From assembly GCA_017483465.1 (NCBI GenBank), contig JAFUWN010000062.1:10085-74084 (forward strand): 64,000 nt of DNA, given 5' to 3'. This DNA is from Oscillospiraceae bacterium (lineage in GTDB: Bacteria; Bacillota; Clostridia; Oscillospirales; Ruminococcaceae). The position numbers and the translations under genes were made by a program. This document shows, in pieces, positions 8,056 to 46,397 of this stretch (position 1 is the stretch's first letter; every line of letters begins with the position of its first letter). The notes beneath the pieces are model-generated. The model worked only from the letters and a program-made list of their open reading frames with translations. It was not told where the DNA came from and did not search any database.

Positions 8056-8059
8056 CTGT

Positions 8060-8135: not shown

Positions 8136-8150
8136 CTCACAACAATAATT

Positions 8151-8179: not shown

Positions 8180-8189
8180 TAGTTTTTTC

Positions 8190-8236: not shown

Positions 8237-8241
8237 GCTTT

Positions 8242-8466
8242 TTATTTCATCAGTTCTTTTAATTTATCCATCAGTTCCAGATCTTCCGGAGCAATCCGGA
8301 TATTGGTCACGGCTTTCCGGCCGTCAGCAGAAGTAACGCTGATTTCGAGCAGACTGCCTTCATCAAGATTCTGTCCGGCATAGCCGAAAAACTGAATAAA
8401 TTTCGGATGACGTTCCTGAAAGCCTTCCAGTAAAGGCTTGATATGCATTAAAGCAAGCGGATTCAT
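8242..8466 (-). CDS. Small hypothetical protein (74 aa)
   Basis: ORF with its own promoter, an RBS (GAGG) and a terminator; no family recognised. Confidence 0.6.
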   Translation of the reverse strand: MNPLALMHIKPLLEGFQERHPKFIQFFGYAGQNLDEGSLLEISVTSADGRKAVTNIRIAPEDLELMDKLKELMK

Positions 8467-8505
8467 AAAAATAATACCTCATTTCTGATTTTTTGTACTG
8501 CATTT

Positions 8506-8534
8506 ATTATAGCATAGTTTTCTGAAAAAAGCAA
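8506..8534 (-). promoter_or_regulatory. Sigma-A promoter of the 74-aa gene
   Basis: Minus strand TTGCTT-17-TATAAT with TGC extension. Confidence 0.55.
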
Positions 8535-8634
8535 GAGAATTCGTGCAAAATATTGTTATTTTTTTGTCAATCAGAAAATAATTTGCATAAAGTGCTGAAT
8601 TTCATAAATTTTACAGAAATTTCTTAAAAATAAC

Positions 8635-8663
8635 TTGCATCTGTCACATGTCTGTGATAAAAT
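8635..8663 (+). promoter_or_regulatory. Candidate sigma-A promoter of pyk
   Basis: TTGCAT-17-TAAAAT with a TGA extension. Alternative -10 boxes exist at 8664-8669 and 8705-8710, so the assignment is uncertain. Confidence 0.4.
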
Positions 8664-8713
8664 TATAATGGCATAAAATTTTGAAACTGCCAGAAACGGA
8701 GCTGTATAATATT

Positions 8714-10144: not shown

Positions 10145-10155
10145 TCCATACCAAC

Positions 10156-10193
10156 AAAAAGCCCTGACAGAAACCTGTCAGGGCTTTGCATTT
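10156..10193. terminator. Bidirectional terminator between convergent pyk and ispH-S1
   Basis: Hairpin AGCCCTGACAG-aaac-CTGTCAGGGCT flanked by an A-run upstream and T-rich sequence downstream. Confidence 0.7.
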
Positions 10194-10207
10194 ATACTGA
10201 TAAATTC

Positions 10208-20955: not shown

Positions 20956-23900
20956 TCAGAAAGAACTTACCAGTCCGACGATATATTTCAGAATCGTGAG
21001 CGAATCAGAAGAATCCGGTGTTCCGTTTCTGTCCACATCGGCATATTTCTGCTGTGCCGGTGTGAGTGTTTCTTTTCCAAGAATATTCTTGTTCAGAGCA
21101 ATGACATCCAGAATATTGATCTTGTCATCTGCTGTCACATCCCCGAAATAGCCTGACTGTAAGCCGGTAGTTTCTGCATATTCCGAAGCAGTCGAATTCA
21201 GATTGCATGTGAGAACAAAATCTTTTATAATACTGTGTACGAAAATATAAGAATACTGTCCGGTAGCCATAAAATCAGAATTGCAGCCGAAAGCCTCTGT
21301 GCCGATTACCGCATCTGTACTGCATACAGAAGCTTCCAGAAGCGATTTGCAGTTGATAAAAGCTTCTGCTCCGATTTCTCTGACATTCGCCGGAACAGTC
21401 AGTTCTGTCAGACCTGTAGCAGAAAAGGCTTTCTGCTGAATCGTTTCCAGACTCTCCGGAAGTGTGACAGATGTCAGATTTGCACAGCCATCAAAAGCAC
21501 TTGCTCCGATAGTTTTTACACCCTCCGGAATCGTTACAGCTGTCAGATCTGTATTCATATAAAAAGCATTGCCAAGAATCGAAACCACATCATCCGGAAT
21601 GCTGATTTCTCCTTTTACAGCTGTTCCGTCAATCAATAAGCCGTTAATAATCAGCAGGGGAGAATCACTCTGCATTGCTTTCAGCCATGGTGTATTGGCA
21701 AAGGCCTTTTCTCCGACAACTTCCAGACTTTTCGGAAGTGTCAGTTCTGTCAGATGACTGCAATTGGAAAATGCCTGCTTTCCGATAGAAATCACAGAAT
21801 CCGGGAGAATCACTTCTGTTACACGAGTATTATATTTTCCGAAAATCTGTTCACCGATACCGGTTACCCCCTCCGGAACGGTAATGCTGATTACTTCCGG
21901 TGTCGTATCTTCTGCCGGATCGGGAATTTCAGGAATCTGCGTTCCGCAGGAAGTCTGTCCGGCGATGATACCGCCGTTCTGTTCACACAGATAAGAAACA
22001 ATCCATGCAAGAGAACTGTTCCAGTTGACTGCACATTCATTCACAGAATAGGCTTCTATATCGTCAATATAGCATTTCTGCGGCGAGGGCATTTCTTCTT
22101 TCCATGCTCCTTTGACAACGGTGTCTTCCATACCTGTATTTGCTCCGCCGACCAGCACGCCGCAGGGAGCTTTCGGCATAGCAGATTTCAGAGCTTTCGC
22201 CCAGTAACGATGATGCGGATACTGTGAACTGTGTACCCCATATCCTGTAACATAAGAATAATCCAGAGCATTCCGGCCAAGCAGATAGTCCATAGCACTC
22301 ACAGCACCGTTCAGATAAGAAATATCCTGATTCAGATCATACGCATAGGCTAAAATAATTGCATTATCTGATACAAACGAATTCGATGCCCAGACATAAT
22401 TGCCATCCTGTGCCTGATAGGGCAGACCGTAACCCTGTTTATTTTCAAGGTTCAGATAAAAATCAGCTGTTTCTGTCAGATTGGTATGCAGATTCTGCTG
22501 CTCCTGATCAGTAAGTGTATTTTCATGCAGCAGAAGTGACATAGAACCTAAAGCCGCTGTATGTCCCCAGTCGAAACTTCCGGTCAGTCCGGAGGCTTCA
22601 CCGCCGTTCAGATCATACGGCACCGCAAAGGCAAATTCTGAATTCTGTAAATCAGAATAATAATTCTTCTCTCCGGTAGAAAGATATAATTCACAGGCTG
22701 CCCAGTAAAATTCATCTGTTACCACATCATCACTATAGGCACCGCCGCCGCCGTATTCTGTATTCGGAGCATACATATCCGGATGAGCTTTCGCCGCTTC
22801 ATAGGCATTTTTTGCCGCCGTCAGACAGGCCTCTGCAAAATCAGAATCCAGATCTTTCCAGAGACGATAGGCCTGTGCTCCGCAGGCAGCCAGATTCAGA
22901 GTCGCCGCAGTCGAGGGCGGCAATAACCATCTTTCCTGTTTATCGTTCGCCGGAGATGTTCCCAGAGCTGTCCATTTGGCATCATGTACTTTATGATATG
23001 CCATATCTTTACAGTCGCCGTCCCGGACAATCATTTTCAGCATCCATTCCATTTCATAACGGGCTTCATCCAGCAAATCCGGCAGAGCATTTGCATTTTC
23101 CGGAAGTTTCATAACTCCGTCCTGATAAGCTTCTGCTGTATTTTTCAGAACAGAACGTTCATATTCATTCTGCATCAGCCACAGTGAGATTCCGCCGTTG
23201 ACGACATATTTTCCATGATCTCCGGCATCATACCAGCCGCCTGTGACATCCTGCGTTCCGGAAGAAGCCGTATAATCCCAGATATTCTGAATTTTTGCAA
23301 TATCAGAGACATGTCCGGCTGCTCGGGCGAGTTCGGCAGTATCTCCGGAAGTGATATATTGTTCTTCGATTTCGATTCCGGAACGGTTCTGATAAAAATA
23401 ATTCAAAGCATCATACAGCAGACCGGAATAGTCATCCAGAATGCCGATCTGAAATGCTTTCGATTCTGCACCGTTTTCACTCCGGAGTGTATAAATGCCT
23501 TCGGATGTGAAATCAGAAAAATCCAGAATATGCACAGAATCACCGGATTCAGAATCCAGACCCATCGGCTGGGAAATTCCCGTATAGACGATATTTCCGG
23601 CTTCATCCAGCAGATGAAATTCTATGCCTGCGGTTTCATCAGAAAGCAGAGTTGCTTTCTTAGCAAGATCAGGAAAATAGCCGATCTGATTTGTTAAAAT
23701 TCCGGCTCGGTTCCAGAGTTTCGATTCAGCATATTCCTGTATTTTCCTGTCTTTTTCGGCCTGAATCTCTGCAAGCTGACGGCTGACTTCTTCGGAAGCA
23801 TCGATCAGAATATGATTTACTGTTACAAAAGGCGAAATTTCTTTCTGTGCAGCAAGCCACGGTGTATCGCCGAACGCACTGTTCCCGATTGCTGTCAGAC

Positions 23901-24312
23901 TTTCCGGGATTTCGATTTTCGTTAAAGCCGGACATTCATTGAATGCATAGCTTTCGATTGTCGTCAGGGTAGAAGGCAGTGTAACTTCTGTCAGATTCTT
24001 ACTGCTCCAGAATGCTCCGGAAGCAATTTCTGTTACCCCCTCCGGTATCACGACAGATGTCAGTGAACAGCCGTAGAAAGAAGTTGCACCGATTTTTGTA
24101 ACCGGCATTCCGTCAATTTCTGACGGAATTTCTACTGTTCCGGCTTTGGTATCATATCCGGTGATCGTAACGGCTCCGTTTTCGATCGTATAAGTCAGCG
24201 AGCCAAATGTCAGATCGGATGAGGCCGCCGCTGAGAGTATTTCCGCTGACGGAGTTCCTGTGTTCAGCAGACACAGTGCAAGTGTCAGGGCTGAGATAGC
24301 ATTTTTTTTCAT
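20956..24312 (-). CDS. Cellulosomal endoglucanase: signal peptide - LRR - Ig-like - GH9 - LRR - dockerin (1118 aa)
   Basis: GH9 motifs: DVTGGWYDAGDHGKYVVNGG, YPHHRYW, VGGANTG, AYSVNECAVNWNSSLAW. BspA-type LRR modules at aa ~33-175 (nt 23788-24216) and ~807-1045 (nt 21178-21894). Dockerin GDVTADDKINILDVIALNK..DVDRNGTPDSSDSLTILKYIVG (nt 20959-21144). Confidence 0.93.
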   Translation of the reverse strand: MKKNAISALTLALCLLNTGTPSAEILSAAASSDLTFGSLTYTIENGAVTITGYDTKAGTVEIPSEIDGMPVTKIGATSFYGCSLTSVVIPEGVTEIASGAFWSSKNLTEVTLPSTLTTIESYAFNECPALTKIEIPESLTAIGNSAFGDTPWLAAQKEISPFVTVNHILIDASEEVSRQLAEIQAEKDRKIQEYAESKLWNRAGILTNQIGYFPDLAKKATLLSDETAGIEFHLLDEAGNIVYTGISQPMGLDSESGDSVHILDFSDFTSEGIYTLRSENGAESKAFQIGILDDYSGLLYDALNYFYQNRSGIEIEEQYITSGDTAELARAAGHVSDIAKIQNIWDYTASSGTQDVTGGWYDAGDHGKYVVNGGISLWLMQNEYERSVLKNTAEAYQDGVMKLPENANALPDLLDEARYEMEWMLKMIVRDGDCKDMAYHKVHDAKWTALGTSPANDKQERWLLPPSTAATLNLAACGAQAYRLWKDLDSDFAEACLTAAKNAYEAAKAHPDMYAPNTEYGGGGAYSDDVVTDEFYWAACELYLSTGEKNYYSDLQNSEFAFAVPYDLNGGEASGLTGSFDWGHTAALGSMSLLLHENTLTDQEQQNLHTNLTETADFYLNLENKQGYGLPYQAQDGNYVWASNSFVSDNAIILAYAYDLNQDISYLNGAVSAMDYLLGRNALDYSYVTGYGVHSSQYPHHRYWAKALKSAMPKAPCGVLVGGANTGMEDTVVKGAWKEEMPSPQKCYIDDIEAYSVNECAVNWNSSLAWIVSYLCEQNGGIIAGQTSCGTQIPEIPDPAEDTTPEVISITVPEGVTGIGEQIFGKYNTRVTEVILPDSVISIGKQAFSNCSHLTELTLPKSLEVVGEKAFANTPWLKAMQSDSPLLIINGLLIDGTAVKGEISIPDDVVSILGNAFYMNTDLTAVTIPEGVKTIGASAFDGCANLTSVTLPESLETIQQKAFSATGLTELTVPANVREIGAEAFINCKSLLEASVCSTDAVIGTEAFGCNSDFMATGQYSYIFVHSIIKDFVLTCNLNSTASEYAETTGLQSGYFGDVTADDKINILDVIALNKNILGKETLTPAQQKYADVDRNGTPDSSDSLTILKYIVGLVSSF

Positions 24313-24539: not shown

Positions 24540-26870
24540 TCAGAAATTTGCCAGATCTTCTTTTGTCAGCAGACCGACAATGAATTTCAGAATTGCCAGA
24601 GATTCGTCAGAATCCGGCTTCTGGTTCTTGTTCAGATCAGAATTTGTCAGACCATCCGGAGTTAATGTCTCTTTTCCGAGCAGTGCTTTGTTGATCGTGA
24701 TAACATCCAGAATATCTACCTTGCCGTCAGTATTGGCATCACCGAGCAGAACAGAAGTTTCTGTGCCGGATTCCGTTTCGGATTCCGTTTCTGTTTCGGA
24801 AGGCTGTTCATTGTTGTCATATTCATATACAAGTTTAATTGTATTATAAGTTACTTCTGCACCTTCGGGATATGTCCACCAGTTAGGCTGAATTTCTGCA
24901 TAATCATCCAGAGTTGTGCCACTCACTTCAACGCCCTTTTCATCCACAACGATCGTAAATTTATCGTTGAATTTTACGATATTATCGTTAGTGCCGGCAT
25001 CAAAAGAGATTGCTTTGCTGCCCCATACGGCTGCGGTTTCACCCTCCGGAACAACCTGATTGAAGCAGAGTCCGCCGCCGCCTAATGCTCCGGCAGTAAC
25101 ATTGAACACAATTTCTTTCAGATGTTCTTTATCGCCAAGCGGAAGAATCGGATAATTATTTTCAGAAAGCTCTAGATCTGCATAGTTATAAACAGTTTCT
25201 TTGATTGTGACATCAGGTTCTTCTGTGATTTCTGCATCGGATTTCTGATCGCTGATGACAATCTGTGCAACGGACAGTGCCGGAAGTGTGACGGTCAGAG
25301 TATTTCCGGAAAGATCGTTCTGAACATCAATGACTTTGATTTCACTGGAATCCTGTGTGATCGCATAAACAACAGCACTCTGATAATTCTTGTCAGAACC
25401 GGTGAGGCTGATCACAGCAGTTTCATCAGAATTGGCATCTTTATTTGAGAGTGTCATCGTTACAACAGAATCATCCTCGCCGTTGATGGCTGCAAATGCT
25501 GCGGCTTTGGATAAATCTTCTGTTTCGGCAGATACCAGTGTATCACCAAAAGAACCGCCCTTGCCGTCATAGTTGGTATACAGATTGATTGCGGATTCTA
25601 CATACGGGCATTCCGGCAGAGTTCCCCAGTAAGTTGCAAAATAAACTTCATTCAGAGCGAATGCACCCAGAGCTTCGGCTTCTGCAATTGCAGTAATAAC
25701 AGATTTTCCGGTTGTTTTTTCGCTGGCGATGTTGCCCAGATTATATTCAGAGACTGCAAGTTTTGTTCCCGGATAATATTTATCAATTGATTCCTGCATT
25801 CTGGTCAGGAACGGGAAATAGCTTCCGGCCCAGGGCTGTAACCAGCTGTTTTCCTGATATTCCGGATCATAAAGGCTTCTTGCGGCCTGTAAAATGCCTT
25901 CATCTGTAGAAACATCCTGAGCATAATAATGTACATCGAATACATCAATCAGACGTTTGCCGTAATCTGCTTCGGCCTGCTTCATCTGGTCAAGATAGTA
26001 ATCCATATACCAGCTGTAGTTGTTCTTGACTGCCTGCCACTGAGGGTCAGTAAAGCCGTTTCCGGTTTCACCGATCTGCATACAAGGCAGCATTCCCCAG
26101 AATGCAGGGCCGTAAACTTCGGCTTTCGGGTCGATTTCCTTGACTACTTTTGCAAGTTCGATAGACTTGGAGACAAGTTCTTCGTTTGTTACTTCTTCAG
26201 GATGCATCCGGAAATGTGTATCATTCCAGAGTACCGGTTCGTTATCAAGGCTGTATGCCTGAATGCCTTCTGCTGTGGAAGCATCACCCAGTGTATTGAC
26301 GATATAATTTACATACTCGTCCATATAGACAACATTATCTGTTGTATCGGGTTCGAGAGAAAGTTCGCCGTCTTTTCTGAATTTGACTTCGTTCCATCTT
26401 GCGGAGGGAGCAGCTTCGGCTTCGGAAACTTCACCGTTCTTATCAGCAGATACATAACCGGCCATCTGGAGGGTTGTCATTTTATAGGGAATGCCGTATT
26501 TATTCACATTCTTGGAAAGATTTCTTGCGGCATAGCCTGCACCATCAGAAATATCACCGATATTGGTATCGGAACTGTGTTTCCAGTCATTTCCGGCATT
26601 GGACCAGTTTGTTTCCCAGTTATAACCAGTATAACGATTGCCGCCCTGACGGACTGCATTGACTTTCACATTTTCCAGATTCGCACCGTTGCCGTATTCG
26701 TTTACACCGTAGATATACGGGCTGATTGCTTTTCTGTTCTTGGATGTGTCTACTGTGACAGTCATCTGATAGGCATCAGCAGCATTCACTGCTGTTCCGA
26801 GAGAAGCTGCCGGAACAGTCAGCAAAAATCCGGCTAAAGCGGCTGCCAGTACACGATTTGATTTTTTCAT
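24540..26870 (-). CDS. Cellulosomal GH44 endoglucanase/xyloglucanase with extra beta-rich module and dockerin (776 aa)
   Basis: Signal peptide. GH44 motifs: RQGGNRYTGYNWETNWSNAGNDW, SLDNEPVLWNDTH, VSEYN. Additional ~130-aa module (nt 24816-25214), an ETETESETESGTE linker and the dockerin GDANTDGKVDILDVITINK..PDSDESLAILKFIVG (nt 24543-24743). Confidence 0.9.
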   Translation of the reverse strand: MKKSNRVLAAALAGFLLTVPAASLGTAVNAADAYQMTVTVDTSKNRKAISPYIYGVNEYGNGANLENVKVNAVRQGGNRYTGYNWETNWSNAGNDWKHSSDTNIGDISDGAGYAARNLSKNVNKYGIPYKMTTLQMAGYVSADKNGEVSEAEAAPSARWNEVKFRKDGELSLEPDTTDNVVYMDEYVNYIVNTLGDASTAEGIQAYSLDNEPVLWNDTHFRMHPEEVTNEELVSKSIELAKVVKEIDPKAEVYGPAFWGMLPCMQIGETGNGFTDPQWQAVKNNYSWYMDYYLDQMKQAEADYGKRLIDVFDVHYYAQDVSTDEGILQAARSLYDPEYQENSWLQPWAGSYFPFLTRMQESIDKYYPGTKLAVSEYNLGNIASEKTTGKSVITAIAEAEALGAFALNEVYFATYWGTLPECPYVESAINLYTNYDGKGGSFGDTLVSAETEDLSKAAAFAAINGEDDSVVTMTLSNKDANSDETAVISLTGSDKNYQSAVVYAITQDSSEIKVIDVQNDLSGNTLTVTLPALSVAQIVISDQKSDAEITEEPDVTIKETVYNYADLELSENNYPILPLGDKEHLKEIVFNVTAGALGGGGLCFNQVVPEGETAAVWGSKAISFDAGTNDNIVKFNDKFTIVVDEKGVEVSGTTLDDYAEIQPNWWTYPEGAEVTYNTIKLVYEYDNNEQPSETETESETESGTETSVLLGDANTDGKVDILDVITINKALLGKETLTPDGLTNSDLNKNQKPDSDESLAILKFIVGLLTKEDLANF

Positions 26871-29985: not shown

Positions 29986-30026
29986 TTTAGTTAAGATTAA
30001 ATATTATATTAATAACTGAATTTTAA

Positions 30027-30056
30027 GAGGACTGGTGTAAATCAGTCCTCTTTTTT
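30027..30056 (+). terminator. gdhA terminator
   Basis: Hairpin GAGGACTG-gtgtaaat-CAGTCCTC followed by TTTTTT. Confidence 0.8.
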
Positions 30057-30057
30057 A

Positions 30058-30086
30058 TTGACAGATGGTATAGGGCATGTTATAAT
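30058..30086 (+). promoter_or_regulatory. Sigma-A promoter of the 290-aa secreted protein gene
   Basis: TTGACA-17-TATAAT (12/12 consensus, TGT extension). Confidence 0.7.
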
Positions 30087-30121
30087 AAAAATACAAAATA
30101 TTTTACAGAGGAGGAATTTCT

Positions 30122-30994
30122 ATGAAACTCACCAGAAAACTGACAGCAGGTTTTTCTGCTCTTGCAATTGGCAGCAGCTTTGCGGCTGTTCCGGCAGCGG
30201 CGGCGGAATCTTATGAAGATGTACTGAATTCGATTCTGAATACACAGAAATACGGCGATATTGTCTTTGAAACTATGGATGGCTTCGATACTGACGGAAA
30301 TCAGTTCGCTGTCTGCGATGTGGACGGTGACGGCCAGAAAGAATTATTGGTCAAATGGTCAAATACATTCGTAGCAGGTCAGCAGGAAGTTATTTTCTCA
30401 AAAGATGCTTCCGGAAATATCGTTCATAAAGGAACAGCCAGTATTTCTATAGAATATTATGATAACGGTGTATTTATTTCTCAGTGGTCACATAATCAGA
30501 CACTTTCTGATTTTTATCCGTATACACTCGAAAAATATAATTCTGATACCGGAAAATATGAAATCATCGGGAGTGTTGTCGCCTGGGATAAAGAAATTGC
30601 TTCTGTCAATGAAGACGGCAAGGCCTTTCCGGATTCTGCTGATACCAGCGGAACAGGAAGAGTGTATTATATTCTTACTCCGGATAACTGGGATTTGTAT
30701 GCCGGAACCCCTCTGGATGTGACTGAGTATGAAGCATGGCTGCAACAGTATACAGGCAGTGCTTCGGCAGTCATCCGGCCGCAGTACTGGACTATGACTG
30801 CAAATTATATTTCTCCTGTCTGCAAATTACAGGAAACAACAGGTTCTGTACAGAGTCAGGCACTCGGAGATCATAATCATGACGGCTCGACAGATGCCGC
30901 CGATGCGGCTTGTATTTTACAGTATGCCGCTGAAGTCGGTGCCGGAAATTTCTTCGGTACGCTTCCGGAATTTATACAGTCAAGCAAGGGATGA
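30122..30994 (+). CDS. Secreted protein of unknown function with a C-terminal single dockerin-like repeat
   Basis: Signal peptide (AVPAAAAES). ~215-aa domain of unknown function containing an FG-GAP/VCBS-like DVDGDGQKELLV motif. C-terminal GDHNHDGSTDAADAACILQYAAEVGAGNFFGTLPEF (nt 30863-30991). GAGGAGG RBS. Confidence 0.8.
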   Translation: MKLTRKLTAGFSALAIGSSFAAVPAAAAESYEDVLNSILNTQKYGDIVFETMDGFDTDGNQFAVCDVDGDGQKELLVKWSNTFVAGQQEVIFSKDASGNIVHKGTASISIEYYDNGVFISQWSHNQTLSDFYPYTLEKYNSDTGKYEIIGSVVAWDKEIASVNEDGKAFPDSADTSGTGRVYYILTPDNWDLYAGTPLDVTEYEAWLQQYTGSASAVIRPQYWTMTANYISPVCKLQETTGSVQSQALGDHNHDGSTDAADAACILQYAAEVGAGNFFGTLPEFIQSSKG

Positions 30995-31001
30995 ATCATC
31001 A

Positions 31002-31034
31002 GGGAACTGCCTCAAAAGGCAGTTCCTTTTATTT
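31002..31034 (+). terminator. Terminator of the 290-aa gene
   Basis: Hairpin GGGAACTGCC-tcaaaa-GGCAGTTCC followed by TTTTATTT; it abuts the next promoter. Confidence 0.8.
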
Positions 31035-31061
31035 GACAGACTGCGGATATTCTGCTATAAT
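31033..31061 (+). promoter_or_regulatory. Sigma-A promoter of the LRR/FMN-binding protein gene
   Basis: TTGACA-17-TATAAT (12/12 consensus, TGC extension). Confidence 0.7.
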
Positions 31062-31095
31062 AATATTATTATCATCCTGAAAGGAGTATTTCATC

Positions 31096-32502
31096 ATGGA
31101 TAAAAAAAGAATTTTGGGAGTAGTAAGTGCCGGTTTACTGTTAGCAGAAAGTCTTTCTCCGTCCGGTATCTCCCTGACAGCAAACGCAGAATCAGAAGTG
31201 ACTGACGGAGATCTGACTTATATGATCTATGATACCCATGCCACTGTACGGCAATGTGATACAGCTGCGACAGAAGTTACTGTTCTTTCTGAAATTGACG
31301 GCTATCCTGTGACTGTAATTGAAAATAATGCTTTTGAAGAATGTACTTCATTGATTTCTGTGACCATTCCGGAGGGAGTTACAACAATTGGGGCAGGGGC
31401 TTTTTATTCCTGTACTTCTTTGCAGGAAGTGAATCTTCCGGATAGTATTACCGCAATGGGAATCGTCTACAATGATGAAGAAGCAACACAATCACAGCTT
31501 GTCAAGGCCAGAACAGGTATATTCTATAACTGCAAATCGCTGAAAACAATTACACTCCCGAAAAATCTGGAGAGTATTAAGGCAAGTGCCTTTTATGGCT
31601 GCAGTGCTCTGGAATCTGTCAGAATTTCAGAAAGTGTAAAGGCAATCGGAAATACAACAGTCTCCGGAATAGAAAAAACAGTACCGGCTCTGGCATTTTC
31701 CGGCTGTGTCAGACTGAATCAGATCGAAGCAGATGAAAATAATCAATATTATACAACTGCTGATAATATATTATATAATAAAGATAAATCAGAATTATGT
31801 CTGCTTCCGAAAGATAAAGAAAGCTATACATTCCCTGAAACTGTGACTTCTGTTTCTGAACAGGCTGCTTCCGGCTGTAATAAATTAAAAAGCATTGCCA
31901 TTCCGGAGCGTGTCACGCAGATCGGTGAAAAGGCGTTCGGCTATTCTTCTTCCGGAAATCCGATTGCAGAATTTACTGTCTATGGTGTTTCCGGTTCGGC
32001 CGCTGAAACTTATGCACTGGAAAACGGCTTTATTTTTGCAGAACTCGGTTCTGTTCCGGCTGCAGACCCCCAAGAAACAGAATTTCCTGTCGGTGATCAT
32101 AACCAGGACGGACGAGTAGATGCTTCTGATGCTGCTTGTATTCTCATGTATGCCGCCGAAGTCGGAGCAGGAAATTTCTCCGGTACGCTTCCGGAATTCA
32201 TGGAAAATTTAACATCAGCAAGTTCTGGTAAAATTTATAATGACGGAATTTATACAGTAACAAAATTCGGTTATGATAGTGATGTGACTATAGTAGTTAC
32301 TATAAAAAATGATGTAATTACAGATATAACAGCTTCCTGTAATGAAAGTGATATGTATTATTTTGATACTGCTTATCCGATTCTGAAAAATTCAATTCTT
32401 GTTGCACAGAGTCCGGATGTAGATGCGGTTTCAGGTGCAACATTTTCTTCTGATGCGATCAGAGATGGTGTGCGAGAGGCTTTGAATCAGGCAAAAAAAT
32501 AA
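31096..32502 (+). CDS. Secreted BspA-type LRR protein with a single dockerin-like repeat and a C-terminal FMN-binding domain
   Basis: Signal peptide (LTANA|ESE). LRR units of the type IPEGVTTIGAGAFYSCTSL. Dockerin-like repeat GDHNQDGRVDASDAACILMYAAEVG (nt 32089-32202). FMN_bind-like module (nt ~32227-32493) with flavinylation-type motif DAVSGATFSS. Confidence 0.85.
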   Translation: MDKKRILGVVSAGLLLAESLSPSGISLTANAESEVTDGDLTYMIYDTHATVRQCDTAATEVTVLSEIDGYPVTVIENNAFEECTSLISVTIPEGVTTIGAGAFYSCTSLQEVNLPDSITAMGIVYNDEEATQSQLVKARTGIFYNCKSLKTITLPKNLESIKASAFYGCSALESVRISESVKAIGNTTVSGIEKTVPALAFSGCVRLNQIEADENNQYYTTADNILYNKDKSELCLLPKDKESYTFPETVTSVSEQAASGCNKLKSIAIPERVTQIGEKAFGYSSSGNPIAEFTVYGVSGSAAETYALENGFIFAELGSVPAADPQETEFPVGDHNQDGRVDASDAACILMYAAEVGAGNFSGTLPEFMENLTSASSGKIYNDGIYTVTKFGYDSDVTIVVTIKNDVITDITASCNESDMYYFDTAYPILKNSILVAQSPDVDAVSGATFSSDAIRDGVREALNQAKK

Positions 32503-32523
32503 TCGAAATGTTTTGAAAACTTC

Positions 32524-32552
32524 TTGACAAATTTGTAAAATTACTGTAAAAT
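32524..32552 (+). promoter_or_regulatory. Sigma-A promoter of the GH9-CBM3 gene
   Basis: TTGACA-17-TAAAAT. Confidence 0.6.
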
Positions 32553-32590
32553 AAAATTATCAAATCTATTTCGAGAGGGGAAATTTTTTT

Positions 32591-34894
32591 ATGAAGAAGT
32601 TACTCGCAGGCATCTCCAGTCTGGTGATGTGTGCCACTGCTCTGACCGCTCCTGTGCAGAGTGCCGTCACAAGCCTCTCTGCCAATGCTGCTGATGTCAA
32701 TTATGCCGAAGCTCTTCAGAAATCTATGTTTTTCTATGAAGTTCAGCAGGCCGGTGAACTGCCTGACTGGAATATGGTTTCCTGGCGTGATGACTCCATG
32801 CTGACAGATGAAGTGCCCGGCGGCTGGTTCGATGCCGGAGATCATTTCAAATTCGCTCTGACAAATGCCTATACTGCTGCTATTATGGCCTGGGGTGTGA
32901 TCGAATATAAAGATGCACTCAAAAAAGCCGGACTCTATGAGACTTATATGAATAATCTCCAGTGGGGTCTTGACTATGTGGCAGGCTGTGACAGAGGGGA
33001 TGCCGTTGTCGGTACCATCGGTGACGGCTTCGACCATCAGTGTTGGGGCAGTGCAGAAGTTTATATGAGAAAATATAAACTTACAAGCGGTGATGATACC
33101 CGTCCTTTTGATTTAATTACCTGTACTTCTACCACTTCTCAGATGGCTGCTGCTATGGCTGCCGGATATATCGCTTTTAAAGACGAAAATCCGACTCTTG
33201 CCGCAAGCTATCTCGAACATGCAGAAAGTTTATTTGCACTCTCTGATGCAACCAGAAGCAATGAAGATCAGGGCGTTCAGAAATCTTATTATCCGGCTTC
33301 GGATTTCTATGATGATCTGTTCTATGCCGCTAACTGGCTCTACCGTGCTACCGGTGAACAGAAATATCTTGACAAGTGTGATGAATATATCCCGAACTTA
33401 GCAACAGAATCTCAGTCTACAGAAAGAAAGTATACATGGGGCTACTGCTGGGATGATGCGTTACAGGGTGCCGCTCTGCTCTATTATGAGAATACCGGCA
33501 AGGAAGAGTGGAAAACACAGATGGAACATCATCTTGATTACTGGATTGACGGCTACGGCGGAAAACAGGTTGCCTATACACCTGACGGCCTTGCATGGCT
33601 CATGGAATGGGGTGCTCTCCGTCATGTGACTACAACTGCCTGGCTCGCTAAACTCGCAAGCGATGTCGCTTTCAAGGATGATACTGCTAAGGCTGAAAAA
33701 TATAATAACTGGGCAAAGAAACAGCTGGATTACTGCTTTGGTGATAATGATCTGAACCTCTGCTATGTTCAGGGCATGGGCGAGAATAATCCGAAAACGT
33801 TCCATCACAGAACCGCTTCCGGTATTCATGACGATCATTGGCAGAGCCTCGGCCTTGATGAAGCCGATGCAGAAGGCTGGCAGACTGAATATGCTCATAC
33901 TCTGTATGGTGCGTTAGAAGGCGGCCCCTCTAAAGACGGTACTTTCACGGATGAAGTCGGTCAGTATCAGTATACCGAAGTTGCAATTGACTATAATGCC
34001 GGTTATACGGCTCTGCTCTGTGCTATGATTGATGATTACGGCGGAGAACCGCTTGCGGATTTCCCTGAAAAAGAATCTCCCAAGTGGAACGAATTTGAAG
34101 TCGCCGCCGTCATCCAGCAGAATCAGGCAAGCTATACACAGCTCCAGATCTGGGCTATGAACCATTCTGCATGGCCGGCAAGAGTTGTCGAAAATCTGTC
34201 TTATAATTATTATTTCGATGTTTCCGAAGTTCTGGATGCAGGTCTGTCTGTCGATGATATTCAGGTTTCTATCGGCTATGATCAGCATGCAGGCGATGAA
34301 GGTGCTCTGAGTGTCTCCAAGCCGATTCAGTATAAAGATAATATCTATTATATCAAGCTGACTTTCAATGACGGCTCTGTTGTTATGCCGACCGGTCAGT
34401 CTGAACATCGTTCCGAAGCTCAGGTCAGAATTGCTGTTGCTGATACTGCTCCGGCCGGTGCATGGGATCCGACCAATGACCCGTCTTTCAAGGGCTTGCA
34501 GGAAGGCGGTCAGGATTTACTCAAATCTCCGGAAGCTATTACGCCTTATATTACCATGTATGACGGTGATACACTCATCTACGGTGAAGAACCTGACGGC
34601 ACAAAGCCTTCTGAAGAACCTGTCGTTTCTCCGACTGAAAAAGAATCTGAATCGGAAACAACACCCTCTGAATCTTCTTCTGATGATCTGCTCTACGGCG
34701 ATGTCGATATGAACGGTACTGTCAATATTCTTGATGTCATCACACTGAATAAAAATCTGCTCGGAAAAGAAATTATCAATGATGATCAGAAAAAGCGTGC
34801 TGATGTCGTTCTTGATGATACAATTGATTCTGTGGATTCCCTGACAATTCTGAAATATATTGTCGGCATGGCTGCTCTGCCTGTAAAATCCTGA
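32591..34894 (+). CDS. Cellulosomal GH9 endoglucanase with fused CBM3c-like module and dockerin (767 aa)
   Basis: Signal peptide. GH9 without Ig domain (NYAEALQKSMFFYEVQQAG, GGWFDAGDHFKF, HHRTASG, GALEGGPS, YTEVAIDYNAG). CBM3c-like module (EFEVAAVIQQNQASYTQLQIWAMNHSAWPAR). ESESETT linker and dockerin GDVDMNGTVNILDVITLNK..SVDSLTILKYIVG (nt 34697-34891). Confidence 0.92.
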   Translation: MKKLLAGISSLVMCATALTAPVQSAVTSLSANAADVNYAEALQKSMFFYEVQQAGELPDWNMVSWRDDSMLTDEVPGGWFDAGDHFKFALTNAYTAAIMAWGVIEYKDALKKAGLYETYMNNLQWGLDYVAGCDRGDAVVGTIGDGFDHQCWGSAEVYMRKYKLTSGDDTRPFDLITCTSTTSQMAAAMAAGYIAFKDENPTLAASYLEHAESLFALSDATRSNEDQGVQKSYYPASDFYDDLFYAANWLYRATGEQKYLDKCDEYIPNLATESQSTERKYTWGYCWDDALQGAALLYYENTGKEEWKTQMEHHLDYWIDGYGGKQVAYTPDGLAWLMEWGALRHVTTTAWLAKLASDVAFKDDTAKAEKYNNWAKKQLDYCFGDNDLNLCYVQGMGENNPKTFHHRTASGIHDDHWQSLGLDEADAEGWQTEYAHTLYGALEGGPSKDGTFTDEVGQYQYTEVAIDYNAGYTALLCAMIDDYGGEPLADFPEKESPKWNEFEVAAVIQQNQASYTQLQIWAMNHSAWPARVVENLSYNYYFDVSEVLDAGLSVDDIQVSIGYDQHAGDEGALSVSKPIQYKDNIYYIKLTFNDGSVVMPTGQSEHRSEAQVRIAVADTAPAGAWDPTNDPSFKGLQEGGQDLLKSPEAITPYITMYDGDTLIYGEEPDGTKPSEEPVVSPTEKESESETTPSESSSDDLLYGDVDMNGTVNILDVITLNKNLLGKEIINDDQKKRADVVLDDTIDSVDSLTILKYIVGMAALPVKS

Positions 34895-35133: not shown

Positions 35134-38100
35134 ATGCGCAAATTTAATTTTGGTAAGAAGTTCGCTGCTGGTGCTGCTGCACTCGCTATGGTAGCAACTT
35201 CTTCTGCAGCTTCTGTTGCAAGCATGACTGCTTTTGCAGGCAATCTGCTCGGTCAGGGTACATTCCAAGAGGGTGCCGGTCTGCCGTGGCATATCTGTGA
35301 AAACGGTTCTGCATCTATGGCTTTTGAAATCAACAACGGCGTTTACGCTATCGAAATCATCAACACCGGTGGTGCTTCCGAAGGCGGCGAAGACAGATGG
35401 GACTGCCAGTTCCGTCACAGACAGCTTTCCATTACTTATGGTCATAAGTATCGTCTGACTTATTCTGTTTATGCTACCAATTCCGGTCATATGTATGCAA
35501 AACTCGGTGACGTTACTAACGATGACTGCGAATACTGGCATAACTGCGGTAATAAAGTAGATATGGGCGAATATGATCCGAGCCTCGGTCAGGATGATCT
35601 CGTTTCAAAACTGACAAGTGCTTCTGTCAGCAAGGAAACTGATAAGAGCAATCAGAGCCAGTGGGATGTTCCTTATTATCAGGGCTGGAATTCCTGGAAA
35701 GAAGATACAATTCCTGCTAAAACATGGAAGACATATGCTTGGGAATTCTACATTGATAAGTCCTATATGGAAAATCTGAACGGTAACGTTCCGGAAGGCA
35801 AGAAGACTGTTGAATGGACATTCCATTTCGGCGGCGATGGTCAGTATACTCCTGAAAAGTGCTTCCCGGCTGGTACTGTTATCAAGTTCGATAACCTCGC
35901 TCTGATTGATATGGACGGCTCTGACACTGACTGGGAAGAACCTCCTGTAAAAGAACAGCGTGATATTGTTCTGAACCAGGTTGGTTTCTATCCGAACCTC
36001 CAGAAACAGGCTACTGTGGAAGGCGGCAGCGGCAGTTCCTTTGAAGTAAAGGATTCTTCCGGCAAGACTGTTTATACCGGCACACTCGGCTCTGCTATCA
36101 CTGATGATACTGCTGGTGAAACTGTTCAGATCGCTGATTTCTCTGACTTCACAACTCCTGGTACAGGTTACTATATCGAAGCTAACGGCAAGAAGTCTCT
36201 GCCTTTCGATATCGGCAATGACATCTATGACGGTCTGGTTACAGATGCTATGAACTATTATTATCTGAACCGTTCCGGTATCGACCTGAGCGATCAGTAT
36301 GTTTCTGACTCCAAGGGTCATTATTCCAATAATCCGCATGACAGTGACAGAACTCTCGGCCGTAAGGCTGGTCACAAGCCGGATACTGCTTACATCTCTG
36401 ATGAATGGGTATATATCTACACTTCTGAACCGACATATTCTCAGTCCATCGATGTAACAGGCGGCTGGTACGATGCCGGTGACTATGGTAAATACGTTGT
36501 AAACGGCGGCGTTTCCATGTGGACTCTTGGTAATACTTACGAACGTGCTCTCTATGCTGGCAAGGCTGACAAGTGGGCTGACGGCTCCGGCACTGTCAAG
36601 ATTCCTGAAACCGGCAACGGCATTCCGGATATCCTTGACGAAATGATGTGGGAAGCTGACTTCTTCGAGACCATGCAGCGTGCTGACGGTATGGTTTACC
36701 ACAAGATTCATGACTACAAGTGGACAGGCCTCGGCGTTATGCCTTACTATGAAGAAGGCACTAAGGAAGAAACTACCAATCCGAAGCGTATCGTAAAGCC
36801 TGCTACTTATGCTGCTACTCTGAATGCTGCTGCATCATGGGCACAGCTGGCTCGTCTGCTCAAGCCCTATAATGAAGCTAAGGCAAATGAATATATTGCA
36901 GCTGCTGAAAAGGCTTACAAGGCTGCCAAGACTGCTTTCGTTGGCAATTATAAAGATATCTATGCTAAGGTTGACGGCGACTACACCAAGGACGATATGT
37001 TCGCACCTCTGGAACAGAACAAGGGCGGCGGACCTTACGGTGATACTCAGGTTTCCGACGAATTCTACTGGGCTTCTACAGAACTGTTCCTGACAACAGG
37101 CGGTGCTGAATACGGCACAGATATGAGAGCTTATGCTGATGCTTTCACTGTTCCGACTCACGTATTCGGCGGTGAAAACAAGGGCGACCCGACTGCCTTC
37201 ACATGGGGCACTCTGGAAGCACTCGGCACAATGTCCTATGCTGTTCAGAAAGACAATGCAAATGCTGATGCTGCTGAAATCAAGAAGTCTTCCGAAGCTG
37301 TTCAGGCTGCTGCTGACTACTATCTCGGCGTTGAAAGCAAGTCCGGTTATGGTACTAACTACGAAGGTCAGGATATGTCCGCAACAATCACTGTATTCGA
37401 CGGCGATACTCCTACAGAAAAGACCATCGATATGAAGGGTGCTTACGGCTGGGGTTCCAACTCCATGGTAGCTAACAATGCTATCGTTCTGGGTATTGCT
37501 TATGACCTCACTGATGAAGTGAAGTACCTGAACGGTGTATCTTCTTCCTTCGACTATATCCTCGGCAGAAACGCTATGGAAAATTCCTATGTAACCGGCT
37601 GGGGTACTGAAACAACCAACTATCCGCATCACAGATACTGGTGCCCGCAGATGAAGGCCGGCTGGCCGTATGCTCCATCCGGATGCCTGTCTGGCGGCCC
37701 GAACTCCAACATGAACGACCCGATGATCCAGGGTGCTGGTTATAAGATCGGCGAACTCGCTCCGCAGAAGTGCTACTATGACCAGAACGATGCTTGGTCT
37801 GTAAACGAAATCACCATCAACTGGAATGCTCCGCTCGTATGGGTATCTTCCTTCATGGAAGACGAAGGCCCGAATGCCGGCGAACAGCAGGAAACAAAGC
37901 CGACTGAATCTCAGACTGGCGATATCCTCTGGGGTGATGCTGACTGCAACGGCGTTGTAAATATTCTGGACGTTATCACTCTGAACAAGAGCGTTATGGG
38001 TAAAGAATCTCTGACCGATCAGGGCAAGATCAACGCTGACGTTGACCAGAGCGGTACACCGGATTCTACTGACTCCCTGAATATTCTGAAGCTGATCGTT

Positions 38101-38136
38101 GGTCTGTATACACAGGCTAACTTCCCGATCAAGTAA
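35134..38136 (+). CDS. Cellulosomal endoglucanase: CBM4_9-like - Ig-like - GH9 - dockerin (1000 aa)
   Basis: Signal peptide. N-terminal CBM4_9-like beta-sandwich (GNLLGQGTFQEG..WDCQFRH). GH9 motifs DVTGGWYDAGDYGKYVVNGG, YPHHRYW, LSGGPNS, AWSVNEITINWNAPLVW. Dockerin GDADCNGVVNILDVITLNK..DQSGTPDSTDSLNILKLIVG (nt 37933-38133). GGGAGG RBS and strongly biased codon usage. Confidence 0.94.
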   Translation: MRKFNFGKKFAAGAAALAMVATSSAASVASMTAFAGNLLGQGTFQEGAGLPWHICENGSASMAFEINNGVYAIEIINTGGASEGGEDRWDCQFRHRQLSITYGHKYRLTYSVYATNSGHMYAKLGDVTNDDCEYWHNCGNKVDMGEYDPSLGQDDLVSKLTSASVSKETDKSNQSQWDVPYYQGWNSWKEDTIPAKTWKTYAWEFYIDKSYMENLNGNVPEGKKTVEWTFHFGGDGQYTPEKCFPAGTVIKFDNLALIDMDGSDTDWEEPPVKEQRDIVLNQVGFYPNLQKQATVEGGSGSSFEVKDSSGKTVYTGTLGSAITDDTAGETVQIADFSDFTTPGTGYYIEANGKKSLPFDIGNDIYDGLVTDAMNYYYLNRSGIDLSDQYVSDSKGHYSNNPHDSDRTLGRKAGHKPDTAYISDEWVYIYTSEPTYSQSIDVTGGWYDAGDYGKYVVNGGVSMWTLGNTYERALYAGKADKWADGSGTVKIPETGNGIPDILDEMMWEADFFETMQRADGMVYHKIHDYKWTGLGVMPYYEEGTKEETTNPKRIVKPATYAATLNAAASWAQLARLLKPYNEAKANEYIAAAEKAYKAAKTAFVGNYKDIYAKVDGDYTKDDMFAPLEQNKGGGPYGDTQVSDEFYWASTELFLTTGGAEYGTDMRAYADAFTVPTHVFGGENKGDPTAFTWGTLEALGTMSYAVQKDNANADAAEIKKSSEAVQAAADYYLGVESKSGYGTNYEGQDMSATITVFDGDTPTEKTIDMKGAYGWGSNSMVANNAIVLGIAYDLTDEVKYLNGVSSSFDYILGRNAMENSYVTGWGTETTNYPHHRYWCPQMKAGWPYAPSGCLSGGPNSNMNDPMIQGAGYKIGELAPQKCYYDQNDAWSVNEITINWNAPLVWVSSFMEDEGPNAGEQQETKPTESQTGDILWGDADCNGVVNILDVITLNKSVMGKESLTDQGKINADVDQSGTPDSTDSLNILKLIVGLYTQANFPIK

Positions 38137-40781: not shown

Positions 40782-40825
40782 AAAAATAGCATTGATTGCA
40801 TGAAAATTCAGAGGAGGTAATTGCA

Positions 40826-42688
40826 ATGAAATTTTTTAAAAGACTGGCAGCCGGGGTTTCTGCACTTGCCCTGTGTGCCGGGATGACAGTTTCCGGTTTT
40901 GTTCCGGTAAATGCTGCCGATGATAACAATGATGACTGGTTACATGCTGTCGGAAGCCGTCTCTATGATAAAGACGGGAATGAAGTCTGGCTGACCGGTG
41001 CGAACTGGTTCGGTTTTAACTGTTCCGAAAACTGTGCTCATGGTATGTATGCCGCTGACTGCGATGCTTTTTTGCAGAGCGTGGCTAACCACGGAATCAA
41101 TATCATCCGTATGCCGATTTCAACAGAATTGTTATGCTCCTGGATGAACGGGGAACCTAATCCCGTGCAGAGCGTTCAGGCAAGCTATGAACCCCCTGTT
41201 GATCAGGTCGGTGAAGACGGAACAGTCACCAAAGCCGGTACTTATGGCAATATCAATAAAGATTTCGTAGAATCTGACGGCAAGACTCTCAAGAATTCTC
41301 TCGAAATTTTTGATGCCATGATGAAAAAAATGAAACAGTATGGCCTGAAAGTTCTGGTCGATGTCCATAGTCCGACTGCTCATAACTCCGGTCATAACTA
41401 TAATCTTTGGTATTATAATGCCGAATGTGAAGCCGCTGATACTATGGCTATCACAGAAGGCGGTCATGAAGTTACTTATCAGGAATGGATTGATTCTATT
41501 ACCTGGCTCGCTGAACGCTATGCTAATGATGATACCATCTTAGCATATGACCTGAAAAATGAACCTCACGGAAAAAGAGGCTATGACGGTACAACTTGTC
41601 CAAGCGGAATTGCAAGATGGGATGACTCTAAAGTTGAAAATAACTGGGCTTATGCCGCTACTGAATGCGGCAATTCGATTCTGAATGTCAATCCGAATGC
41701 TCTGATTCTGATCGAGGGCGTTGAGCAGTATCCTAAGACTGACAAGGGGGCGACTTATGATACTGCTGATATCTGGCAGGCACCTGCGGATGTTTCACCC
41801 TGGTACGGTGCATGGTGGGGCGGTAACCTCAGAGGCGTGAAAGATTATCCGATTGATTTCGGCGATGCTAAGAAAAATTCTCAGATTGTCTATTCTCCCC
41901 ATGACTACGGCCCTTCTGTTTATGAACAGACCTGGTTCAATAAAGAATTTGATACACAGTCTTTGTTAGATGATTACTGGTATGATACCTGGGCTTATAT
42001 CAATGACAAAGATATTGCCCCTCTGCTGATCGGTGAATGGGGCGGCCATATGGACGGCGGTAAAAATGAAAAATGGATGACTCTGCTCCGTGATTATATG
42101 ATTGACAATCATATTAATCATACATTCTGGTGTCTGAATCCGAACTCCGGTGATACCGGCGGTCTGCTCGGCTATGACTTCACGACATGGGATGAAGAAA
42201 AATACGGTCTGTTTGAACCCTCTCTGTGGCAGACAACTGACGGGACATATATCGGTCTTGATCATGCACATAAACTCGGTGATTCCGGTCTGACCGTAGC
42301 AGAATTCTACGCTTCCGGTGCTTCCAGCAATCTCGATGCAGGCGGAAAATCTGATCCGGTCGAGATCGAAACCAAACCCGCAGAAGAAACTTCTGAAACC
42401 GAAACCGTGAAAGAAACAGAATCTGAACCTCCGGCCAGTTCCGAAACCGAATCTGAAACTGCTGATACTTCCGCTTCTGATACTATGCTCGGTGATGTGG
42501 ATGAAAATAAAGCGATAAATATCCTGGATGTTATCGCTCTGAACAGAAATCTGCTCGGTAAGGATGTACTTACAGAATCTCAGAAAAAAGCAGCTGATGT
42601 CAATAACAGCGGTACACCGGATTCCGGTGACTCCCTGGCGATTCTGAAATATATTGTCGGAATTATCAAAGATTTCAGCGAAGCTTAA
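40826..42688 (+). CDS. Cellulosomal GH5 endoglucanase with dockerin
   Basis: Start at ATG 40826 behind GAGGAGG. Signal peptide. GH5 motifs: LTGANWFGFN, DLKNEPHG (acid/base), LIGEWGG (nucleophile), HTFWCLNPNSGDTGG. ETSETETVKETESE linker and dockerin GDVDENKAINILDVIALNR..NNSGTPDSGDSLAILKYIVG (nt 42491-42685). Confidence 0.93.
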   Translation: MKFFKRLAAGVSALALCAGMTVSGFVPVNAADDNNDDWLHAVGSRLYDKDGNEVWLTGANWFGFNCSENCAHGMYAADCDAFLQSVANHGINIIRMPISTELLCSWMNGEPNPVQSVQASYEPPVDQVGEDGTVTKAGTYGNINKDFVESDGKTLKNSLEIFDAMMKKMKQYGLKVLVDVHSPTAHNSGHNYNLWYYNAECEAADTMAITEGGHEVTYQEWIDSITWLAERYANDDTILAYDLKNEPHGKRGYDGTTCPSGIARWDDSKVENNWAYAATECGNSILNVNPNALILIEGVEQYPKTDKGATYDTADIWQAPADVSPWYGAWWGGNLRGVKDYPIDFGDAKKNSQIVYSPHDYGPSVYEQTWFNKEFDTQSLLDDYWYDTWAYINDKDIAPLLIGEWGGHMDGGKNEKWMTLLRDYMIDNHINHTFWCLNPNSGDTGGLLGYDFTTWDEEKYGLFEPSLWQTTDGTYIGLDHAHKLGDSGLTVAEFYASGASSNLDAGGKSDPVEIETKPAEETSETETVKETESEPPASSETESETADTSASDTMLGDVDENKAINILDVIALNRNLLGKDVLTESQKKAADVNNSGTPDSGDSLAILKYIVGIIKDFSEA

Positions 42689-46331: not shown

Positions 46332-46368
46332 AGTGAATTCACCCTTTCTTTTGTGTTGTGTTAATTCT

Positions 46369-46397
46369 ATTTTATCATATCTGAAATCGAATGTCAA
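46369..46397 (-). promoter_or_regulatory. Sigma-A promoter of the peptidase gene
   Basis: Minus strand TTGACA-17-TAAAAT with TGA extension. Confidence 0.6.

Follow-up and report, generated by a model that had tools for sequence, protein, structure and literature searches.

A 64-kb window of contig JAFUWN010000062.1 (44% GC, ~39 genes), the whole stretch of DNA analysed here, derives from an uncultured rumen Ruminococcus whose closest loci among GTDB representatives belong to metagenome-assembled genomes (MAGs) named 'Ruminococcus sp.'. At nt 31096–32502 of its forward strand, on which the parts of this gene and the immediately flanking elements described below are located as well, lies an open reading frame (ORF) with an ATG start that encodes, stop included, a protein of 468 residues composed of a signal peptide, a leucine-rich repeat (LRR) region, a single-repeat dockerin and a flavin mononucleotide (FMN)-binding domain of the FMN_bind family. 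Taking architecture, module identities and evolutionary history jointly, we consider it probable that the gene codes for a BspA-type LRR protein that is exported via Sec and carries a group-2-type dockerin, and that, in a single lineage of rumen Ruminococcus, it was recently extended at the C-terminus by an entire FMN_bind domain. This assessment excludes flavinylation and redox function, which are graded separately below.

The FMN_bind domain (residues 378–468, nt 32227–32499; Pfam core, residues 392–464) was identified by Pfam, AlphaFold2 (AF2) and Foldseek, and follows a short linker of sequence TSASSG (residues 372–377, nt 32209–32226). The Pfam profile PF04205 was matched with an E-value of 7.6e-12 and 46.2 bits against a cut-off of 22, with residues 392–464 covering profile positions 1–77 of 77. 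The flavinylation motif Dxx[S/T]GA[S/T] is present as D443-A-V-S-G-A-T449, with Thr449 (codon at nt 32440–32442) as the predicted site of phosphoester-FMN attachment. A preliminary description of this locus, made from the DNA sequence, had proposed a C-terminal FMN_bind module with an intact motif at this very codon, and the full-length profile match and the motif bear this out. In an alignment of the domain with 38 homologues (39 sequences in total), the window protein retains all six invariant columns, which correspond to the motif residues D, V, S, G, A and T, as well as nine of nine near-invariant ones. The threonine, whose conservation in orthologues had been proposed as a check, is invariant across the aligned domains; the orthologue from the sister lineage lacks the domain as such. 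The AF2 model, with predicted local distance difference test (pLDDT) values of 84–96, shows the three-stranded antiparallel sheet and two helices of the fold, in which the final helix begins with the acceptor residue, a topology that agrees with the published one (PMC10339131). Foldseek searches against the PDB retrieved CbFMN4-D1 (8P2B) as the best match, with TM-scores of 0.85–0.87, root-mean-square deviations (rmsd) of 1.7–1.8 Å and 33–34% identity, and SaFMN3 domain 2 (8P2A) was also among the best matches (TM-score 0.80). In both of these domains, FMN was found by mass spectrometry and crystallography to be phosphoester-linked to the equivalent threonine after co-expression with ApbE (PMC10339131). 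The NCBIfam RnfG models scored only 13–17 bits on the 468-residue protein, against cut-offs of 102–230.

The nearest sequence relatives of the domain are just 42–48% identical, and the genomic context was examined for three close homologues, two of which are encoded beside apbE. P0160 is found in a cluster of ApbE, two FMN_bind proteins, Fer4_5 and an FMN_bind-Ig protein, P0128 from Clostridium celatum overlaps an apbE gene downstream of it, and P0134 adjoins another FMN_bind gene only, without apbE. The domain is thus a member of a family that is usually accompanied by its flavin transferase, a companion that is missing from the window. Of note, the cluster containing P0160, which is 48% identical and among the closer relatives found for the window flavin domain, lies on a pig-gut contig (L090, nt 5770–11793) and comprises ApbE, a 388-residue FMN_bind protein, the 143-residue P0160 itself, a Fer4_5 membrane protein and a 787-residue surface protein with FMN_bind and Ig_Eae domains.

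Upstream of the linker, residues 329–371 (nt 32080–32208) form a truncated dockerin of group-2 type, in which a calcium loop (D333–D344) is followed by a helix, the loop GAGNFSG and a second helix, LPEFMENL. A regular-expression scan of the ORF for the calcium loop (DxNxDGxxDxxD) returned exactly one copy and no second repeat, and the Pfam profile Dockerin_1 (PF00404) was matched with 16.8 bits, below its cut-off of 22.9, over positions 2–23 of 57 only. This half-profile match indicates one dockerin repeat, so that the protein is no canonical two-repeat Dockerin_1 protein. The 42-residue unit (GDHNxDGxVDAxDAACILxYAAEVGAGNFSGTLPEFM) occupies the C-terminus of the 290-residue product of the neighbouring upstream gene and of the sister-lineage orthologue P0002, and is N-terminal, immediately after the signal peptide, in P0133 (locus L015); this recurrence at differing positions identifies it as an autonomous, mobile module. 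When a profile built from six copies of the module was run against the PDB sequences, the best single-domain match was 9GVB_B, a group 2 dockerin from R. flavefaciens FD-1 (27.0 bits; independent E-value 2e-5). The alignment spans the whole module (profile positions 4–45 vs. chain residues 27–67), including the tail G-x-[FY]-x-G-x-L-x-x-F-M-E, whereas classical dockerins match the profile over the calcium loop and the first helix only. An AF2 model generated from a small alignment (pLDDT 82) has a loop-helix-loop-helix topology with helices at positions 21–36 and 43–53, and its first two Foldseek matches in the PDB are 9GVB_C and 9GVB_B (TM-scores 0.81–0.84, rmsd 0.9 Å, 41–42% identity), followed by a group-4 ScaH dockerin. 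Two-repeat dockerins (locus L047, P0326–P0328), one of which belongs to a C1-peptidase protein encoded in the window, are also similar to the module in their second repeat and tail. A homologue search with the module profile returned five short proteins and does not amount to a census. Matches to plant LRR kinases were dismissed as sums of low-scoring repeats without any significant single stretch.

Duarte et al. 2025 (PMC12270676) demonstrated that naturally truncated dockerins of this kind are functional, with two dockerins binding one cohesin of ScaE, a scaffoldin anchored to the cell wall, and that they descend from group-4 dockerins, of which they represent the C-terminal half. For strain FD-1, Rincon et al. 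2010 (PMC2930009) list five group-2 dockerins, including one carried by an LRR protein. The module studied here shares with RfDoc2 of FD-1 (9GVB) the single calcium loop, the cohesin-binding helix, the subsequent loop and the extra C-terminal helix, and both are related to two-repeat, group-4-like dockerins through the C-terminal half of the latter. It further shares with the FD-1 group-2 dockerins the company they keep, which includes an LRR protein (SIGN-LRR-Doc2) and proteins of unknown function. It differs in that the host is an uncultured Ruminococcus species rather than R. flavefaciens FD-1, and in that the FD-1 dockerins are C-terminal, while here the module is internal (residues 329–371 of 468) or, in P0133, N-terminal. 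Calcium-loop positions 10/11 are likewise distinct, with Gly-Arg in R. flavefaciens groups 2 and 4 (PMC12270676), Ala-Ser in the window protein and Ala-Ala or Ala-Thr in its paralogues. By analogy with FD-1, the module would bind a cohesin, and its docking partner would be a surface-anchoring cohesin rather than an enzyme-integrating scaffoldin. The one dockerin-like, calcium-binding repeat of the preliminary description was thus confirmed as single, and can now be placed more precisely within a known kind.

The third module is the BspA-type LRR region (approximately residues 45–320, nt 31228–32055), which was matched by the Pfam family LRR_5 (PF13306) in three stretches with an E-value of 8.3e-37 and 126.4 bits, far above the cut-off of 27.7, as had been anticipated. 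The profile searches suggested in the preliminary description accordingly place LRR_5 and FMN_bind above their thresholds, with Dockerin_1 as a sub-threshold half-match. The ratio of nonsynonymous to synonymous substitution rates (dN/dS) of the LRR region is 0.23 relative to the sister orthologue. Across a dS of ~0.35 between the window and sister lineages, the LRR-dockerin part as a whole has a dN/dS of 0.21, compared with 0.02–0.03 for gdhA and GH9 in the same pair of lineages. Selection on the LRR-dockerin protein is thus purifying, yet relaxed, and this protein is therefore the product of a working gene.

The gene is preceded by its own σ70-type promoter (nt 31033–31061), which matches the consensus at 12 of 12 positions (TTGACA-17-TATAAT) as previously described and carries a TG extension in addition. 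A ribosome-binding site (AAAGGAG, nt 31080–31086) is placed 9 nt 5′ of the ATG codon. The predicted Sec signal peptide comprises residues 1–31 (nt 31096–31188), with cleavage expected at ANA|E. Inspection of the translation yields an N-terminus that reads MDKKR, then ILGVVSAGLLLA, then ...LTANA|ESE, which is canonical and contains no lipobox cysteine; the N-termini of the orthologue P0002 and of P0133 are equivalent. All statements that the preliminary description made at the level of sequence, including the 468-residue ORF and, as judged by eye, its signal peptide, were checked and are correct.

The history of the fusion was reconstructed from syntenic loci. The nearest relative, P0002, is a protein of 380 residues and 83% identity from a sister lineage, in which the gene order is as in the window, i.e. 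gdhA, the 290-residue gene, the LRR gene and two GH9 genes. P0002 ends in ...GTLPEFMQSIRK*, and its stop codon precedes a terminator hairpin, after which the promoter of the GH9 gene begins. Alignment of the window with the sister loci revealed ~300 bp, coding for the linker and FMN_bind, that extend in the window from just past ...GTLPEFM to just before the GH9 promoter, while the terminator downstream of the LRR gene is gone. In the sister, tail, terminator and promoter match the tail of the 290-residue gene's homologue in L016, an outgroup locus without the LRR gene, with 86% identity across 87 bp, and the stop codon and terminator are therefore ancestral and the flavin domain derived. No FMN_bind domain was found in a set of 80 syntenic Ruminococcus loci with a total length of 1.3 Mb. 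The inserted segment (nt 32206–32510, limits approximate), which replaces the ancestral QSIRK-stop and terminator, has a GC content of 33% and a GC content at third codon positions (GC3) of 0.163. The latter is lower than in all 15,527 windows of 98 codons taken from the 39 window genes (mean 0.44, SD 0.06, minimum 0.235). The C. celatum homologue of the domain has a GC3 of 0.09, and the composition of the insert fits a low-GC clostridial donor. The comparison establishes that the LRR-dockerin gene lost its last few codons, its stop codon and its terminator to a foreign, low-GC segment of ~300 bp that took their place, and that the FMN_bind tail is a recent gain limited to one clonal lineage.

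A sharp drop in composition at nt 32206, as observed here, could also arise if an LRR-dockerin gene had been joined to an unrelated FMN_bind gene by an assembly chimera or another sequencing artefact. We reject this explanation and deem it next to impossible. The identical 1407-nt gene (encoding P0001, annotated as 'MAG: Oscillospiraceae bacterium') was recovered on six contigs, which represent six samples and were produced by three assembly sources (ENA k141 MEGAHIT-style, XIEF21 scaffolds and Logan), without a single-nucleotide polymorphism (SNP), with the same junction and with equal flanks on both sides; furthermore, synteny is maintained past the junction through the GH9 promoter and into the GH9 gene. 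The fusion is therefore no assembly artefact. Loss of FMN_bind in the sister through gene conversion from the upstream paralogue was also considered, since the dockerin modules at the sister locus L001 are 92% identical. This was rejected as the main explanation because the L001 tail, terminator and GH9 promoter are closer to L016 (86% over 87 bp) than to the upstream tail of L001, and it is disfavoured, too, by the outlier composition of the FMN_bind segment. As a separate observation, the 92% DNA identity concerns the modules of adjacent genes (L001, nt 9838–9949 vs. 11018–11128), compared with 83–85% across lineages or genes, a pattern suggestive of local gene conversion that acted on the tandem modules in the sister lineage.

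Several considerations temper our reading of the protein as an exported, docked and recently extended one. The signal peptide, and with it the predicted export, was judged by eye. The residues at the cohesin-recognition positions 10/11 are Ala-Ser instead of Gly-Arg, so that 'group-2-type' does not denote membership of the FD-1 specificity group. A domain of 91 residues that begins six residues past the dockerin might hinder antiparallel 2:1 docking, given that the FD-1 group-2 dockerins are strictly C-terminal. The absence of diversity in the FMN_bind part gives no sign of selection on it. Finally, none of the ~39 genes of the window belongs to the ApbE, NDH-2, Rnf, Eet(A/B) or Fer4_5 families, in agreement with the previously noted lack of genes similar to apbE/fmnB, ndh2 or eetAB, and no cohesin family is represented among them either. 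Beyond the window, a scan for Dxx[ST]GA[ST] over 1.4 Mb of related loci, which represent the same genomic neighbourhood and not whole genomes, returned the window gene only. A search for ApbE or Rnf in Ruminococcus across the literature and the supplements of Meheust et al. yielded nothing usable.

In the mechanism that we propose, the gene would be transcribed from its own consensus promoter, and the protein would be exported via Sec and its signal peptide cleaved after Ala31. The truncated dockerin would then dock, probably pairwise, on a ScaE-like, cell-wall-anchored cohesin, and would thereby place the LRR domain at the cell surface and not on an enzyme-integrating scaffoldin. Provided that an ApbE-type flavin transferase is encoded in the genome, FMN would be attached to Thr449 through a phosphoester bond during or after export, which would create a one-flavin redox module at the surface. 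Whether the domain is flavinylated in vivo we regard as nearly balanced, with a slight lean towards the negative. A selected role in extracellular electron transfer (EET) or other redox chemistry is unlikely: it is not obvious from where one flavin, held on a scaffoldin in the wall, would obtain electrons, and diffusible shuttles would be required, which makes such a role a minority possibility. The most likely state is that of a young fusion, competent yet unproven and possibly neutral.

A strictly neutral variant of this history is a serious contender, to which we give somewhat less than even weight. FMN_bind would here be a very young passenger acquired through illegitimate recombination or horizontal gene transfer, exported in the apo form for want of a cognate ApbE or of an electron supply, functionless and likely to be lost. 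Its restriction to one clonal lineage with zero SNPs, the unameliorated GC3 of the insert, a sister lineage that manages without the domain, the lack of companion redox genes in the window and the accidental look of an insertion that cost the gene its terminator are all in keeping with this. Yet the frame, the entire domain and every conserved residue are intact, the fusion is present in at least six samples, and the in-frame capture of a complete domain together with a Ser/Gly-rich linker is not the likeliest result of random insertion.

The preliminary description had gone further and envisaged a covalent flavoprotein, docked on the cellulosome or the cell surface, that acts in flavin-based EET, in scavenging of oxygen or reactive oxygen species (ROS), or in redox-assisted attack on polymers. 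We consider this improbable. Much of its structural basis did stand, as the modules are intact, the fold is that of flavinylated domains and the AF2 model of the dockerin superposes on a proven cohesin binder. Moreover, FMN_bind is a bona fide extracytosolic electron-transfer module and there is precedent for flavinylated proteins that contain cell-wall-binding domains (PMC8238504), a homologue is part of the ApbE, FMN_bind, Fer4_5 and surface Ig-FMN_bind cluster mentioned above, and reduced SaFMN3 reduces O2 (PMC10339131). EET and polymer attack were, however, conjectured outright. The protein has a single FMN domain and no membrane anchor, conduit genes are absent nearby, and the predicted docking site lies tens of nanometres off the membrane, so that a diffusible shuttle would be needed. 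The recency of the fusion in one lineage gives no sign of an established pathway. In addition, a physical link to the fibre-degrading apparatus was too strong a claim, because this dockerin type targets the anchoring scaffoldin ScaE by analogy, while the carbohydrate-active enzymes (CAZymes) at the locus carry another type. A non-redox use of the domain, such as surface binding or capture of free flavin or another ligand, e.g. for vitamin scavenging, is very doubtful indeed. The only point in its favour is that the fold binds FMN in general, but the characterised members are all loaded covalently by ApbE instead of capturing free FMN (PMC8238504, PMC10339131), and the gene is not associated with transporter genes in the window.

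Comparison with known flavinylated systems sets the protein apart from each of them. It shares with CbFMN4 and SaFMN3 the motif and, with respect to 8P2B, the aforementioned fold and identity values; the extracytosolic location of those proteins is also predicted for it from the signal peptide seen by inspection. CbFMN4 and SaFMN3 have three to four domains in tandem and are anchored to the membrane at the N-terminus, with apbE encoded next to them (PMC10339131), whereas here a single domain follows LRRs and a dockerin, without apbE nearby. Listeria PplA, from the FLEET locus, is a secreted FMN_bind protein with an ApbE-type motif outside a Gram-positive cell, as the window protein is predicted to be. 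PplA, however, is a lipoprotein with two FMN_bind domains that is encoded together with fmnB (apbE), ndh2, eetA/B and dmkA/B, while the 468-residue protein has no lipobox and one FMN_bind domain, and none of the FLEET genes is found in the window. With RnfG and NqrC the protein has the FMN_bind domain and the flavinylation motif in common, but neither an N-terminal transmembrane anchor nor an rnf or nqr operon is present. A parallel in terms of location is provided by the flavinylation clusters with cell-wall-binding domains (SLH, Rib, FIVAR and LysM; Meheust et al. 2021, PMC8238504), which likewise position flavin electron-transfer parts at or within the Gram-positive wall. Those gene clusters are multi-flavinylated, and their anchoring domains are borne by large unannotated proteins. 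In the window protein, by analogy, a cohesin-dockerin interaction of the FMN_bind polypeptide itself would serve as the anchor, and the gene is placed among cellulosomal genes and not in a flavinylation gene cluster. A full-text search of the accessible literature found no paper that joins flavinylation or FMN-binding domains with dockerins, as the preliminary description had supposed, and a search for cellulosome, EET and flavin returned tangential papers only. SIGN-LRR-Doc2 proteins are already known, as are flavinylation clusters that include proteins with cell-wall-binding domains. What is new is the combination of a dockerin with an FMN_bind domain, built of known parts and found in one lineage.

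The neighbourhood of the gene consists of housekeeping and cellulosomal genes, the latter encoding GH9-CBM3-Doc, CBM4-GH9-Doc, GH5-Doc, GH44-Doc, LRR-GH9-LRR-Doc, LRR-Doc and C1-peptidase-lectin-Doc proteins. The upstream neighbour (nt 30122–30994) encodes the 290-residue protein, with a signal peptide, an uncharacterised domain and a C-terminal single-repeat dockerin (approximately nt 30860–30991). No Pfam family was matched above threshold in this protein, which has a weak FG-GAP-like motif only. Its gene has its own 12/12 promoter (nt 30058–30086) and a terminator, and its dN/dS relative to the sister is 0.18. In P0133, the N-terminal single-repeat dockerin precedes an uncharacterised domain that differs from that of the 290-residue protein. 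The intrinsic terminator after the 290-residue gene (nt 31001–31028) is homologous to that of the LRR gene in the sister, and its counterpart is missing after the LRR-FMN_bind ORF, such that no terminator separates the latter from the 11/12 promoter of the downstream GH9-CBM3-dockerin gene (nt 32524–32552).

The slot between gdhA and GH9 was compared between the window (nt 29986–32590) and loci L001, L011, L012, L014, L015, L016 and L034. It is empty in four close relatives, contains only the homologue of the 290-residue gene in L016 and a SIGN-Doc2-unknown protein in L015, and is fuller in the sister (290-residue gene plus LRR-Doc2) and in the window (290-residue gene plus LRR-Doc2-FMN_bind). 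On these sequence comparisons, genes have been gained repeatedly at this hot spot between gdhA and the GH9-CBM3-dockerin gene, as one to three nested additions that all bear the single-repeat dockerin tag. The two accessory genes in the slot have the lowest GC3 in the window. Terminator-promoter cassettes (GGRAACTGYCTCAAAAGGCAGTTYC, followed by TTGACA..17..TAWAAT) are duplicated before the LRR gene and before the GH9 gene (nt 31001–31075 and 32503–32590; L016, nt 2206–2300), and insertion of the LRR gene apparently involved either a duplicated cassette of this kind or recombination inside one.

Two dockerin types were observed across the window. The glycoside hydrolases (nt 32591–34894, 35134–38136, 40796–42688, 24540–26870 and 20956–24312) have the signature NILDVI..NK ... 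DSL.ILKYIVG. In contrast, the papain-family peptidase-lectin protein on the reverse strand (nt 44133–46397) carries a dockerin reading DATDAARIL ... DASDASIILIYASATGSGTFSGSLEEYL, the second half of which resembles the truncated module. This sequence difference hints at separate cohesin targets for enzymes and surface proteins. The reverse-strand gene at nt 20956–24312 encodes 1118 residues, and its sister orthologue is annotated as LRR_5, CelD_N, GH9, LRR_5 and dockerin, i.e. a glycoside hydrolase unusually flanked by BspA-type LRRs. Three further ORFs gave no Pfam match at E ≤ 0.001, namely those at nt 7476–8081 (forward, 201 residues), 54355–55821 (forward, 488 residues) and 62545–63981 (reverse, 478 residues). 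The second of these, 5′ of two ABC permease genes, may encode a divergent solute-binding protein.

Even if the added domain is neutral, the locus provides a clean and datable case of modular surface-protein building, in which the gains are nested in a readable order: a dockerin-tagged gene, an LRR-dockerin gene, and a foreign domain that replaced stop codon and terminator. Single-repeat group-2 dockerins are herewith extended to other Ruminococcus species, to N-terminal and internal positions and to other recognition residues. Should the host possess both ApbE and a membrane electron outlet, which we think improbable in combination with a functional role, the protein would be the first covalent flavoprotein docked by a cohesin-dockerin interaction on the surface or the cellulosome system of a fibre-degrading anaerobe, and the birth of such a function would have been caught in progress. 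If the flavin domain is loaded and wired, docking of the cellulosome type would recruit electron-transfer modules in addition to hydrolases, peptidases, serpins and adhesins. It could then provide a wall-level redox relay for flavin-shuttle EET, quenching of O2 and ROS where the cell meets the fibre, or redox reactions with plant polymers. Two fields that have so far been apart, those of cohesin-dockerin assembly and of extracytosolic flavinylation by ApbE, would become connected, and a natural template for the display of redox cofactors on scaffoldins would be at hand.

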